Assembly: GCF_000027125.1 (NCBI RefSeq) | Contig: NC_017626.1 | Origin: Escherichia coli 042 | GTDB lineage: Bacteria > Pseudomonadota > Gammaproteobacteria > Enterobacterales > Enterobacteriaceae | Length of the DNA stretch: 64,000 bases | Direction: 5' to 3' (one strand) | Shown here: in pieces, positions 12,001 through 24,000 of the stretch | Layout of the letters: each line of letters starts with the position of its first letter | Position numbering within the stretch: the first letter of the stretch is position 1 | Made by a program: the position numbers

Positions 12001-15000
12001 TACTGAGATCTGGCGTGCTATAGGCCAGTACACAGACGATCCCGAATGGTAGTGCGCCAAACAGTACCCATGGACGAAATTTACCCCAGCGAGAGCGCGT
12101 TCGATCGGCCAACAACCCCATGCAAGGATCGGAAATCGCATCCAGTGCACGAGCGACCAAAAACATGGTTCCGACAAATCCGGCAGGAATGCCAAAAATA
12201 TCGGTATAAAAGAACATCATATATAACATTACGTTATCGAAAATAATGTGGCTGGCGGCGTCTCCCATGCCATAACCAATTTTCTCTTTAACGGACAACA
12301 CTTCACTCTTCATCTGCTTTTCCTTGATGCTATAGGGGTGCTGAGACCGATAACGCATTTTGTAAACCATCCCTGTGAGAGCGAATATTCCGATATCTGG
12401 TTATTAATTTATGATTCTTGTTTTATGTGATCGTGGTAGCGTAAATTACGCTCATATATCATTGTAAAGTATGGGTTTTATATGAACTATAATGCTTTCG
12501 TGATAATACGCTGCGTGTATTAGGCGGAAAAAACTGATCTGGGGGATGTAGAAACTCAAGGAAGTAGCTATAATGCGCCCCGCCTCCATGTAGCAATCGA
12601 GGCGCGGAAGATCGTCGTCTCCGGTGAGGCGGCTGGACTTCAAATCCAGTTGGGGCCGCCAGCGGTCCCGGGCAGGTTCGACTCCTGTGATCTTCCGCCA
12701 AACTTCATCCAGCCAGTTCCGAGATGATCCATAAAACCATTTATATTCAATATGATGAATAATCATCTTATCCGTAACAGTCCGAGATCGTCTCCCTAAA
12801 TCCGCGAAAAATATGTATAGTAATGTGTATAGATTTTTTATAAGTAGTTTTCAGTTATACACATGGCTCTCACCGATATACAGATCAAACGTGCAAAACC
12901 ACAAGACAAGCCATACACATTGAACGATGGACAAGGTCTGTCATTGCTTATCAATCCCGATGGCTCGAAAGGCTGGCGTTTCCGTTTCCGGTTTGCAGGG
13001 AAAGCGCGGTTAATGTCATTTGGCAGCTACGATTTAGTAAGCCTCGCAGAAGCACGTGAGAAGCGTGATATCGCCCGTAAGCAGGTTGCTAATGGCATTG
13101 ACCCGGTAGAGGAACGCAAAGCTTTAAGACTCGCCCAAAAGCTATCAACAGAAAATTCTTTCGAAGCAATATGTCGAGAATGGCATACCAACAAAGCTGA
13201 CCGCTGGACTGTGGCCTATCGAGAAGAAATCATTAAGACATTCGAGCAAGATGTCTTCCCGTTCATTGGTAAACGTCCTATCAGTGAAATCAAACCATTA
13301 GAACTGCTTGAAGTATTACGACGAATCGAAAAACGTGGAGCACTAGAGAAAACACGCAAGGTGCGTCAAAGATGCGGTGAGGTTTATCGCTATGCAATCA
13401 TAACTGGCCGTGCTGAGTACAATCCTGCACCTGATTTAGCTATCGCTCTGGCCGTTCCCAAGCAAAAACACCATCCATTTTTATCCGCTGAAGAGTTGCC
13501 TCATTTTATTCGAGATCTTGAAGCGTATACCGGTAGCATCATCACCAAAAATGCTACGAAGATAGTCATGCTGACTGGTGTAAGAACGCAGGAGATGCGC
13601 TTTGCTACGTGGGAAGAAGTAGACCTCGAAAAAGGTATATGGGAGATACCAGCGGAACGTATGAAAATGCGTAGACCTCACATTGTTCCTTTATCTACTC
13701 AGGTAGTTGACCTTTTCAAACAGCTCAAACCTATTACCGGCCATTACCCTTACATCTTTATTGGTAGGAATAACCGTAATAAACCAATCTCAAAAGAAAG
13801 TGTATCACAAGTAATTGAGTCACTCGGTTACAAAGGACGTGCTACCGGTCACGGTTTTAGACATACAATGTCGACAATTCTACATGAGCAGGGGTTTGAT
13901 AGTGCATGGATTGAGATGCAATTAGCACATGTGGACAAAAACAGTATTCGTGGGACATATAACCATGCCCAGTATCTGGAAGGCAGAAAAAAAATGATGA
14001 ATTGGTATGCTAATCATATCTTTAATATAGGGGTTCCTAAATGACAAACAATGTTCTTACCATACATAATCGCTTGTTTATCAACCAGTTACATTTCTAT
14101 AGAATGAATTTCACTTATATCAACTACAACGGTTGACATTTAAAAAATATTAACATTTAAAAAAAGTAGGAGCTACGCAATGTGCATAGAATTAAAAAAG
14201 TTTTCAATTAAAAAATTATATGGCTATAAAGACATACATCTAATTTTCAATAAAAAAAGTACAATTATCATTGCAGAGAATGGTGCTGGCAAAACTACGC
14301 TAATCAATGCACTTAAATCCACCTTAAAAGGTGAGTTTGATGAACTAAGAAAAATCAAGTGTGAGAGTATTGATATAGAGTTTTCTGATCAAAAATTCAC
14401 ATTGAATATTGCAGCATTAAGTTATTCTGATTTTCTGAATAATGCATTGTTACCAACTAGATTTCGTGAAATCACGAAAAATCTTAATAATACACAAATT
14501 GAAGATGCATTAGCATTTCTAAGACATAAACCAGTGAAGGATGCCCGTCAGACTACATGGTACCGAAAAATGTATCATACAACTCCTTATAATTACATTG
14601 ATATCGACTCGACATTATCCGAAGTCAAAATCTTATTAAAAAATCATTATTCATCTCTTGAAAAACCTGATCTTTTCTCTGTAAATAAACCAGAACTGTC
14701 TAAAACCATCCATGCAATAGAGGAAATAAAACAGAAAACAAAAAATATTGAAATAATATATTTACCTACATACCGACGCATTGAAAAATCTACACTTCGT
14801 GATAAGTTTACTAGAGATGAAAATGAAAAATTCGTCTTTAGAGATGGAGAGATCGTCAGTATTCGCGAGGAAAGTGAAACTAACTTAAATATAGAGTTTG
14901 GTTTGTTTGATGTTGAATCAAAATTAAAAGATTTAAGCGCATCCATTGAGCGCCGTTCAAGTTTAGGCTATAGAAAGTTAAGTGCAACCATAATTGAAGA

Positions 15001-21000: not shown

Positions 21001-24000
21001 GTGCTGAAAAACCGTCATCAGCCCTGTCCGGTCTGTGGCGGGAGTGACCGCTTCCGTTTTGATGACAGGGAGGGGCGCGGCACCTGGTACTGCAATCAGT
21101 GTGGTGCCGGTGACGGCCTGAAACTGGTTGAAAAGGTGTTTGGTGTTTCCCCGTCCGACGCGGCCGCAAAGGTGGCTGCCGTGACCGGCAGCCTGCCACC
21201 GGCTGACCCGGCAGTGACGACCGCCGCCGTTGCTGAAACAGACGCTGCCCGGAAGAACGCCGCCGCACTGGCACAAACCCTGATGGCGAAAACCCGTCCC
21301 GGAACCGGTAACGCCTACCTGACCCGCAAGGGCTTTCCCGGCCGGGAATGCCGGATGCTGACCGGCACACACAGAGCCGGTGGCGTGAGCTGGCGCGCCG
21401 GTGACCTTGTGGTGCCACTGTATGACGACAGCGGCGAACTGGTTAACCTTCAGTTAATCAGTGCTGACGGCCGTAAGCGCACCCTGAAAGGCGGACAGGT
21501 CAGGGGCACCTGTCACACCCTTGAAGGACAGAATCAGGCCGGAAAACGTCTGTGGATAGCGGAGGGATACGCGACCGCACTTACCGTACATCACCTGACC
21601 GGTGAAACGGTGATGGTGGCGCTTTCTTCCGTGAACCTCCTTTCTCTGGCCAGCCTTGCCCGGCAGAAGCATCCGGCCTGTCAGATTGTCCTTGCCGCAG
21701 ACCGTGACCTCAGCGGTGACGGCCAGAAAAAAGCCGCCGCAGCCGCAGATGCGTGTGAGGGCGTTGTTGCCCTGCCGCCGGTCTTCGGTGACTGGAATGA
21801 TGCCTTCACGCAGTACGGCGGGGAGGCCACCCGTAAGGCCATTTACGATGCCATCCGGCCACCGGCTGAAAGCCCGTTCGACACCATGAGCGAAGCAGAG
21901 TTTTCCGCCATGAGTACCAGCGAAAAGGCCATGCGTATCTATGAGCATTACGGCGAGGCGCTCGCGGTCGATGCCAACGGCCAGCTTCTGTCCCGCTATG
22001 AAAATGGTGTCTGGAAGGTGCTGCCGCCACAGGACTTTGCCCGGGATGTGGCCGGGCTGTTTCAGCGGCTGCGTGCGCCGTTCTCCTCCGGGAAGGTGGC
22101 CTCCGTGGTGGACACCCTGAAGCTGATTATTCCGCAGCAGGAAGCCCCCTCCCGCCGCCTGATTGGCTTTCGTAACGGCGTGCTCGACACGCAGAACGGT
22201 ACGTTCCACCCGCACAGTCCGTCACACTGGATGCGCACCCTGTGCGATGTGGATTTCACCCCGCCGGTGGACGGTGAAACGCTGGAAACCCACGCTCCCG
22301 CGTTCTGGCGCTGGCTTGACCGTGCTGCCGGTGGTCGTGCGGAAAAACGCGACGTGATTCTGGCCGCACTGTTTATGGTGCTCGCAAACCGCTACGACTG
22401 GCAGCTCTTTCTGGAGGTGACCGGTCCCGGCGGCAGCGGCAAAAGTATCATGGCCGAAATAGCCACCCTGCTGGCCGGGGAGGATAACGCCACATCGGCC
22501 ACCATTGAGACGCTGGAATCCCCGCGTGAACGTGCCGCGTTAACTGGCTTCTCACTGATACGCCTGCCGGACCAGGAAAAATGGAGCGGCGACGGTGCCG
22601 GACTCAAGGCCATCACCGGCGGCGATGCGGTGTCCGTTGACCCGAAATACCGGGATGCATACTCCACGCATATCCCGGCGGTGATTCGGGCCGTGAACAA
22701 TAACCCGATGCGCTTCACCGACCGCAGCGGCGGCGTGTCACGCCGGCGGGTGATTATTCACTTCCCGGAACAGATAGCCCCGCAGGAGCGCGACCCGCAG
22801 CTTAAGGACAAAATCACCCGCGAGCTGGCGGTCATCGTGCGTCACCTGATGCAGAAGTTCAGCGACCCGATGCTCGCCCGGTCACTGCTTCAGTCCCAGC
22901 AGAACTCAGACGAGGCGCTGAACATCAAACGGGATGCCGACCCGACGTTTGATTTTATCGGCTATCTGGAAACCCTGCCGCAGACCAGCGGCATGTATAT
23001 GGGGAACGCCAGTATCATCCCGCGCAATTACCGTAAATACCTCTATCACGCCTATCTGGCCTACATGGAGGCAAACGGCTACCGGAACGTACTCAGTCTG
23101 AAAATGTTCGGGCTGGGGCTGCCGGTGATGCTGAAGGAATACGGACTGAATTACGAGAAACGCCATACCAAACAGGGGATACAGACCAACCTGACGCTGA
23201 AAGAGGAAAGCTACGGCGACTGGCTGCCAAAATGTGACGACCCTGCAACAACCTGACCCACCTGACCGGCATCTGCCGGTCTTTTTTTATCCCGACATCC
23301 CCCGAAGGTGAACAATCCAGTGTTCACCCTTCACCGTATATTCACCCGTTATCACACTGAAATTAAAAGAAAAAAACGAAAGGTGAACAGTGTGAACAAT
23401 CAAATCAAAAAAACTTTTTTTCTTCCTGTGTGATTTTCAGTGCGGAGGATTAATCACCTGTATGAGTCACACCGGCAGAATGCCGTAGGTGAAGAATCGA
23501 ATGTTCACCCTTCACCCATTATTCACCACCTATCCAACTGAAATAAAAGGAGAAAACAGAAAGGGGAACAGTGTGAACAGTTCTTCCGAAAAAAAATTTT
23601 TTTCCTGAGTTAACGTGCGTGAAGATGCGTGTAAAAATTAATCGATAGATATTATATGTATAAGGATGTGTATAAATGAATTAGAGCTGATAAATATAAA
23701 CGATTGGAATCAAATGGTTATATATCAATTTAGACTCCTGTGATCTTCCGCCAAAATTCCTCTTCTGACGTTCTCCAACCCCTTGTAATACTGTCAATCC
23801 AGATATTTTCTACTGCTCAATATTCAATCGGCTTCAGGAATACCTGATCAAAGGTTTTGTGATGGACGATGAGCGACTGAAGAATCCGCCTGTCGGTTCT
23901 TCTGTCCTCGAACGCATCCGCGATATTCGCGCCAGCATGCGCCGTGTTTATTTGCAGGTGATTTGCCCCCCTGCTGACTCTCAGCCAACTGTATCGCCAT

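Follow-up and report, generated by a model that had tools for sequence, protein, structure and literature searches.

A probable complete prophage of a phiR73-type P4-like satellite with a PARIS-1 cargo at selC of Escherichia coli 042

What occupies the selenocysteine tRNA gene selC of Escherichia coli 042, and does the occupant still hold every part of a P4-like phage satellite? The question is raised by the stretch of contig NC_017626.1 (assembly GCF_000027125.1) analysed here, 64,000 nt long and called the window below. Judging from its sequence, the region between two short repeats of the selC end is very probably the complete prophage of a P4-like phage satellite of the phiR73 type. A first-pass annotation had read the locus as a P4-like satellite that sits in selC and carries defence genes, a reading that holds, the cargo being the PARIS-1 anti-phage system. 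There is no novelty in the element, which belongs to the ordinary and already described P4-like satellites: such satellites have been known from selC since 1991, and publications also cover the single-domain Delta and this exact cargo.

Boundaries and P4 backbone of the selC element

The only tRNA gene of the window is that of tRNA-Sec, selC (12606-12700, plus strand; ARAGORN; Rfam RF01852, 83.8 bits), the integration target, whose 3' end is regenerated by the attachment (att) core. The 23-bp repeat GACTCCTGTGATCTTCCGCCAAA, composed of the final 21 nt of selC plus 2 nt, is present in two exact copies in the 64-kb window, with zero expected by chance, namely the attL core at 12680-12702 and the attR core at 23733-23755, spaced by 11,053 bp. 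The 23-bp direct repeat of the selC 3' end that had been noticed earlier is therefore real, and its first copy begins at 12680. Joined in silico around a single copy of the repeat, the two flanks give an empty site that runs uninterrupted in 2,486 of 5,426 complete E. coli genomes (K-12 included), and therefore the element is a precise insertion with the repeat as its att core. Site-specific integration of this kind, at the selC 3' end and with a short direct repeat, is a trait of the phiR73-type lineage. Directly past attR lies a rhuM pseudogene fragment (about 23830-24000) that is also found in genomes with an empty selC; it is therefore an older remnant at the hotspot, outside the satellite.

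The element is arranged in the order attL, int, cargo, cos, psu, delta, sid, ori, vis, CI, epsilon, orf151, cnr, alpha, crr, attR. Alignment to the P4 reference gives about 97% DNA identity from cos to crr; specifically, megablast against phage genomes matches window 16590-23602 to P4 (NC_001609) 4291-11624 at 97%, and blastn lengthens the match to 16563, that is, 27 nt beyond the cos cut. All seven P4 hallmark genes (int, psu, delta, sid, alpA/vis, epsilon and alpha) are full length, and so are cnr, orf151 and the CI RNA; of these, the CI RNA, epsilon, orf151 and cnr are intact parts that the first-pass annotation had not listed. The cis sites are all there, including the att core and arms, cos, ori, crr, two late-promoter dyads and the immunity targets. 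The proteins were compared by tblastn with each P4 protein, which yields full-length, ungapped matches, in agreement with the earlier claim of intact open reading frames (ORFs) for the expected P4 functions. Frameshifts or truncations in int, alpha and sid were looked for as signs of decay, and the tblastn matches together with the Int alignment reveal none in these genes or in other P4 functions. No virulence genes lie between the two att repeats. All seven marker components of the Type A satellites defined by SatelliteFinder and by Moura de Sousa and Rocha are present, and Pfam detects Phage_integrase, Psu, Ogr_Delta, Phage_AlpA, Phage_ASH and Pox_D5 on a 100%-identical locus (L002). The order int-psu-delta-sid-alpA-epsilon-alpha is the commonest one, accounting for 77% of Type A (Moura de Sousa and Rocha 2022, PMC8628076), and among the Enterobacterales P4-like satellites (PMC8628076; SatelliteFinder, PMC10085698) the element is a typical member with no notable difference.

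The packaging and morphogenesis part of the backbone is read on the minus strand. The cos region (16563-16650) holds the 19-nt cohesive end GGCGAGGCGGGGAAAGCAC, exact at 16571-16589 and equal to P4 positions 1-19; it also agrees with the P2 cos region, and the flank aligns to P4 and P2 cos. The exact P2/P4 cos proposed earlier is thus recovered, on the minus strand and as the sole match in the window within 2 mismatches, and the exact end with its conserved flank points to a P2-type cos that would serve packaging by the helper terminase. The psu gene (16755-17327) codes for a polarity suppression and capsid decoration protein of 190 aa that is 94.7% identical to P4 Psu over 188 aa (PHROG 6366, 1e-98). 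The sid gene (17584-18318) codes for the scaffold that determines capsid size, and over 244 aa the protein shares 99.6% identity with P4 Sid; its presence had been recognized correctly in the earlier annotation, although Sid itself has 244 aa (17587-18318) and the ORF of 266 aa extends it upstream. A TGT-N12-ACA dyad upstream of sid (18391-18408), located by comparison with P4, is presumably the Psid activator site, by analogy with P2/P4 late promoters; this upstream region, dyad included, departs from the P4 sequence in a single substitution and a 1-nt indel within a run of T.

The replication functions begin with ori (18489-18592), in which six type-1 iterons TGTTCACC are found in the number and arrangement of the P4 ori annotation; the ori-like cluster indicated earlier is hence borne out with six exact copies. 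Over the 64 kb, 2.1 copies of TGTTCACC would be expected and 10 are present, every one of them within two clusters, the six of ori and four at 23307-23509, as would befit an Alpha-dependent ori and crr. The three "type 2" ori repeats of P4 (CCACTTAAAG) are absent at 18640-18730, while the six type-1 iterons are intact. A second TGT-N12-ACA dyad, the PLL activator site upstream of vis (18751-18768), keeps TGT and ACA and has 3 changes in its spacer relative to P4. The genes that follow are on the plus strand: vis/alpA (P4 orf88; 18871-19137), an excisionase and regulator of 88 aa, 98.9% identical to P4 orf88 (PHROG excisionase; Pfam Phage_AlpA); epsilon (19717-20004, GTG start), the 95-aa protein that derepresses the helper prophage, 98.9% identical to P4 epsilon (Pfam PF25738 on an identical gene); orf151 (19997-20452), 97.4% identical to P4 ORF151; P4 orf106 (20588-20908), for copy-number control, 100% identical to P4 ORF106 and known as cnr; and alpha (20923-23256), the 777-aa primase-helicase and origin-binding protein, 99.5% identical to P4 alpha over 776 aa without gaps, with the Pfam domains Zn_Ribbon_Prim, Toprim_3, D5_N and Pox_D5 on an identical locus. 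The alpha terminator (23264-23281, plus), a 7-pair stem followed by T7, sits at the P4 t-alpha annotation. Lastly, crr, the cis replication region (23302-23602), consists of two 120-bp direct repeats with iterons (23302-23421 and 23483-23602). The crr-like direct repeats of the first-pass annotation are there, except that they end at 23602, where P4 homology stops, and not at 23610.

Modules that set the element apart from P4

The integration module is not that of P4. The int gene (12863-14044, plus) codes for a selC-specific tyrosine integrase (393 aa) that has 37-39% identity to P4 Int and in which R241, H330-x-x-R333, H356 and Y366 align with identical P4 Int residues, so that the catalytic set is kept; Pfam identifies Arm-DNA-bind_3, Phage_int_M and Phage_integrase on the identical int gene of L002. 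The exact protein is found on 844 contigs, and its family is large, with 2,979 members in the 90% cluster and 7,574 matches at E<=1e-50 in a collection of 5.8 billion proteins; in the phage genome collection, no match to the int DNA exceeds 81% identity. Just upstream of int, putative integrase arm-type sites (ATGTGTATAG-like) are located at 12811-12864, their function being suggested by a shared repeat and motif. At the other end, the attR arm (23603-23732) belongs specifically to the selC integrase module, has no P4 homology and carries candidate arm-type sites at 23654-23677. A 24-nt repeat with TGTATA motifs is common to the attL arm and the 130-bp attR arm, and the motif ATGTG?TATA[AG] has 3 occurrences in 64 kb, all within the att arms; these 24-nt repeats are candidate arm-type sites.

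The delta gene (17342-17587, minus) codes for a single-domain Ogr-type late-gene activator of 81 aa (Pfam Ogr_Delta; NCBIfam NF007241, 9e-23), confirming that Delta is one Ogr-like domain and not the duplicated form; its four zinc cysteines (C4, C7, C30 and C35) are all conserved. Delta is 47% identical to P2 Ogr, and 33% and 31% identical to the two halves of P4 Delta, and tblastn against P4 Delta returns 51% over 45 aa. The exact 81-aa protein is present on at least 1,000 public contigs, and no match in the phage collection exceeds 80% identity.

The immunity region is of the P4 kind with its own boxes. A stretch at 19173-19286 (plus) holds a PLE-like promoter (19173-19202), seqA (19230-19259) and the immunity terminator (19266-19280), as read from a promoter/terminator scan and the P4 alignment; Rfam scores c4-a1b1 at 49.1 bits and isrK at 72.3 bits within it. 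The promoter scan returns 19 sites versus 14.1 expected in shuffles, which is not an enrichment, and only the sites coinciding with known P4 features were used. Downstream lies the CI immunity RNA (19385-19472, plus), a C4-type antisense RNA that includes seqB (19424-19455) and scores 74.4 bits in Rfam (RF01695) versus 74.9 bits for P4's own CI, followed by seqC (19473-19519, plus), the second CI RNA target, which covaries with seqB. Relative to P4, seqA, seqB and seqC show coordinated substitutions. The cognate duplexes of seqB with seqA and seqC reach about -31 kcal/mol, whereas cross pairing with P4 yields -16 to -21, and this weaker cross pairing leads to a prediction of heteroimmunity to P4. 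Compared with loci L009, L011, L014 and L017, each of the three boxes (19230-19519) contains two covarying sub-boxes, the first being GTAGGAA/TTCCTAC or GTGAGAA/TTCTCAC and the second CTCGAAGG/CTTCGAG, TTCACAGG/CCTGTGAA or CTTCAAGG/CCTTGAAG. At least four combinations occur among satellites with otherwise 98-99% identical backbones, which suggests several immunity types.

Taken against P4, the element thus has an identical gene order, the same cos end, six ori iterons and the same crr architecture, while it differs in Int (37-39% identical), in the att site (selC here versus P4's own core at leuX), in the cargo (ariA/ariB versus gop/beta/cII), in Delta (one Ogr domain in 81 aa versus two in 166 aa), in the coordinated changes of the CI seqA/B/C boxes and in the diverged type-2 repeat region. 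The selC site and the short Delta, which had been put forward as departures from P4, are indeed such departures, but they are the norm in a large known lineage.

That lineage is the phiR73 one, to which the element is assigned on the strength of shared properties and of the literature. According to the 1991 abstract, phiR73 reportedly has an integrase with some 40% identity to P4 Int and is bordered by a short repeat of the 3' end of selC in direct orientation; if that figure is right, the Int of the window, at 37-39%, diverges from P4 Int in the same manner. Moreover, phiR73 Delta is said, in the papers of Julien and Calendar and in Sabbattini 1996, to be single-domain and the immunity specificity to be unlike that of P4, and both a single-domain Delta and non-P4 immunity boxes are seen here. 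PMC6868368 and PMC3820453, which cite Inouye et al. 1991 (Science 252:969) and Sun et al. 1991 (J Bacteriol 173:4171), describe phiR73 as a P4-like element in the selenocysteine tRNA gene that P2 infection turns into infectious particles re-integrating at selC in new hosts. By published description, the two are alike as P4-like satellite prophages at selC and differ in that phiR73 measures 12.7 kb with retron Ec73 in the variable region, whereas the present element measures 11.05 kb with PARIS-1: in place of a retron Ec73 cargo, AriA and AriB are found. The cargo is the variable part, and therefore the difference excludes identity with phiR73 and leaves membership of its lineage standing.

A prophage at selC has been reported from this strain. 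Table 2 of the genome paper on enteroaggregative E. coli (EAEC) 042 lists ROD61, an 11,030-bp prophage at tRNA-selC (Chaudhuri 2010, PMC2808357), and the same paper terms 042p9 a P4-like satellite phage; we infer that ROD61 is 042p9, since ROD61 is the ninth and last prophage row of the table. The 11,030 bp reported compare with the 11,053 bp delimited here, and the PARIS-1 clone from this strain is exact.

The cargo, the PARIS-1 abortive-infection system, is a cassette of two genes with 31% GC that lies in the variable hotspot from int to cos and takes the place of P4 gop/beta/cII. The first, ariA (14180-15616, plus), codes for the 478-aa AAA15/21 ATPase of PARIS-1 (PADLOC 1.4e-32), whose best match in the PDB is PARIS AriA, 8ux9 (E=1.6e-13), and the exact protein occurs in 1,629 index blocks. 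The second, ariB (15625-16551, plus), codes for the DUF4435/TOPRIM effector, 308 aa from ATG, in an ORF that can also open at TTG 15613 (PADLOC 1.5e-15; Pfam DUF4435 on an identical gene). AriB has no sequence-level match in the PDB, and its identification therefore rests on PADLOC, Pfam and PARIS-1 identity. Adjacent AriA and AriB genes, as in PARIS systems, are thus supported by PADLOC, by Pfam AAA_15/AAA_21 plus DUF4435 and by 8ux9. Table S3 of Rousset et al. 2022 (PMC9122126) lists a clone "PARIS-1, P4, Escherichia coli O42"; 399 of its 399 printed nucleotides are identical to window 13952-14350, the AriB of the window equals PARIS-1 protein 2 of that table in 308 of 308 residues, and both PARIS-1 cloning primers anneal in the window, at 13952 and 16876. 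Therefore, the hotspot of this very element has already been cloned and tested. In that work, PARIS-1 was active against several phages only under Ptet induction (Rousset et al., PMC9122126), and the cargo of the window, being identical in sequence to the clone, would share the demonstrated anti-phage activity.

Relatives and exchange of modules

A scaffold from a human-associated metagenome (L002) matches window 12000-24500 at 100% identity, and several E. coli strains, VR50 among them, carry elements that are 98-99.7% identical. At selC, this cos-to-crr backbone (97.5-99.7%) is also joined to a ResIII helicase pair, to a reverse transcriptase (RT) plus SLATT pair or to a 318-aa protein, while genomes covering 78% of the element have a SIR2 gene in the cargo position. 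The selC loci L009, L012, L014 and L017 have int alleles only 83-94% identical in DNA and unrelated cargos, and at thrW (L011) the same backbone is combined with a different int and a Gabija cargo. Comparison of these loci indicates that the element is modular, with a conserved cos-to-crr backbone and an exchangeable block of att arm, int and cargo. Since the backbone recurs with varied int and cargo, the variable block comprises the attR arm, the core, int and the cargo up to about 8 bp before cos; it corresponds to the "hotspot next to cos" of Rousset et al. (PMC9122126) and, as in the survey of Moura de Sousa and Rocha, the phylogeny of the integrase is decoupled from the remaining genes. 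The identical or near-identical copies, together with the swaps of cargo and site, would reflect recent mobility and modularity.

Decayed relatives also exist: the PARIS-carrying locus L003 at selC has a split psu and is devoid of sid through alpha, which is not the state of the window copy, and strain ST2350 (loci L004/L010), another PARIS-carrying relative, is without a sid gene call. A 951-bp probe made of alpha-3', crr, attR arm, core and flank is covered for at least 80% in 449 of 5,426 complete E. coli genomes, and the P4 equivalent (alpha-3', crr and P4's own att arm) is covered to the same extent in 251 E. coli genomes, two probes that are imperfectly comparable. Even so, these satellites reside at selC at least as commonly as at the site that P4 itself uses.

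Mobilisability, alternatives and significance

By analogy with P4 and phiR73 biology, the life cycle may be outlined as follows. The selC-specific Int, together with Vis, would recombine the 23-bp core for both integration and excision, the latter giving an 11,053-bp circle. In the lysogen, the CI RNA would pair with seqA and seqC and cause early termination of the replication operon. When a P2-like helper infects or is present, Epsilon would derepress the helper, Delta and the helper Ogr would cross-activate the late promoters and Alpha would replicate the element from ori and crr; Sid would then force the helper capsid protein into small capsids decorated by Psu, and the helper terminase would cut cos and package the 11-kb genome. 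The 11,053 bp represent 95% of the 11,624 bp of P4 and should therefore fit a P4-size capsid. Mobilisation by a P2-like helper is accordingly a prediction drawn from the intactness of the sequence and the phiR73 precedent, and several observations weigh against it and against a fully working element. No P2-like helper genes are found in the 64-kb window, where only ogr/delta and cos match P2, and the genome paper reports no P2-like prophage in EAEC 042 (PMC2808357). The activity of Delta on a given helper is assumed, with only 31-33% identity to the P4 Delta halves, and the ori-to-PLL stretch that holds the type 2 repeats in P4 is diverged. In addition, PARIS-1 gave no protection from its native promoter (Rousset et al., PMC9122126).

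The lack of a helper in the window and in the EAEC 042 report (PMC2808357) would also suit a cryptic, no longer mobilisable P4-like prophage that is kept as a fixed defence island for PARIS. Relatives such as L003, with a broken psu and nothing from sid through alpha, and ST2350, without a sid gene call, illustrate such decay, and the decay of satellites into defence islands is discussed by Rousset et al. (PMC9122126). Nonetheless, this explanation is improbable: every P4 gene is full length and 95-100% identical to functional P4, the cis sites are all intact, recent transfer is indicated by identical or near-identical copies from samples and strains that are unrelated, and purifying selection on sid, psu and epsilon is unexpected in a domesticated island. 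A decayed remnant in the strict sense is rejected, as far as sequence can tell, by the full-length tblastn matches. It is less probable still that the element represents a separate, new type of satellite, with the short Delta and the selC tropism as signs of a novel relationship to its helper. The 81-aa Delta with only 51% identity to P4 Delta over 45 aa, the immunity boxes unlike those of P4 and the want of a P2-like prophage in EAEC 042 (PMC2808357) could be read in this way; yet the exact Delta, present on at least 1,000 contigs, has 47% identity to P2 Ogr with its zinc cysteines kept, the cos end and the dyad of Psid match P4 exactly and that of PLL retains TGT/ACA, all sites on which P2 acts, and phiR73, with the same properties, uses P2 (PMC6868368).

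A further explanation holds that the locus is a selC pathogenicity or genomic island with only a P4-family integrase and no satellite. The integrases of the selC islands LEE, PAI-I536 and SHI-2 belong to the P4 family, and the integrase family is very large, as its 2,979 members in the 90% cluster and 7,574 matches at E<=1e-50 attest. The selC gene is also a known island hotspot (PMC6174562). Such an island has next to no probability here and is refuted by about 7 kb of contiguous P4 homology at about 97%, extending over cos, psu, sid, ori, vis, CI, epsilon, cnr, alpha and crr, and the repeats enclose no virulence genes. The complete phiR73-type prophage is thus the preferred explanation.

Virulence-related genes do occur in the window, outside the repeats. 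A low-GC island at 28981-46691 contains type III secretion effector genes, with ORFs for a SipB-like protein of 593 aa, a 383-aa product, a SipD/IpaD-like protein of 449 aa and a HilA/EilA regulator of 565 aa (NCBIfam E=4.5e-287), followed by a giant invasin/intimin-like ORF of 3,806 aa on the minus strand, whose exact protein sequence turned up on three draft contigs only. The island is similar to the eip island that has been reported beside selC in EAEC 042 (PMC2808357). Farther on, downstream of uhp-like transporter ORFs, a patch of 34% GC (58028-60985, minus) holds ORFs of 478 and 435 aa that have no NCBIfam or PADLOC match. The istR small RNA (63552-63681, minus; Rfam 150 bits) fits the E. 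coli chromosomal context.

Two further points can be put forward jointly, and their combination is doubtful: the exchange of immunity types may let several P4-like satellites share a cell, and PARIS-1 may be switched on only upon activation by a helper or by superinfection. If true, PARIS-1 defence would be conditional on the satellite life cycle. As a discovery, the element matters little, for the same element type is present in hundreds of E. coli genomes. Its use is that of a clean and completely annotated specimen of satellite construction, in which a conserved hijacking and replication backbone is joined to swappable integration and defence modules, the way in which PARIS-like systems move from strain to strain and seed defence islands at tRNA genes.

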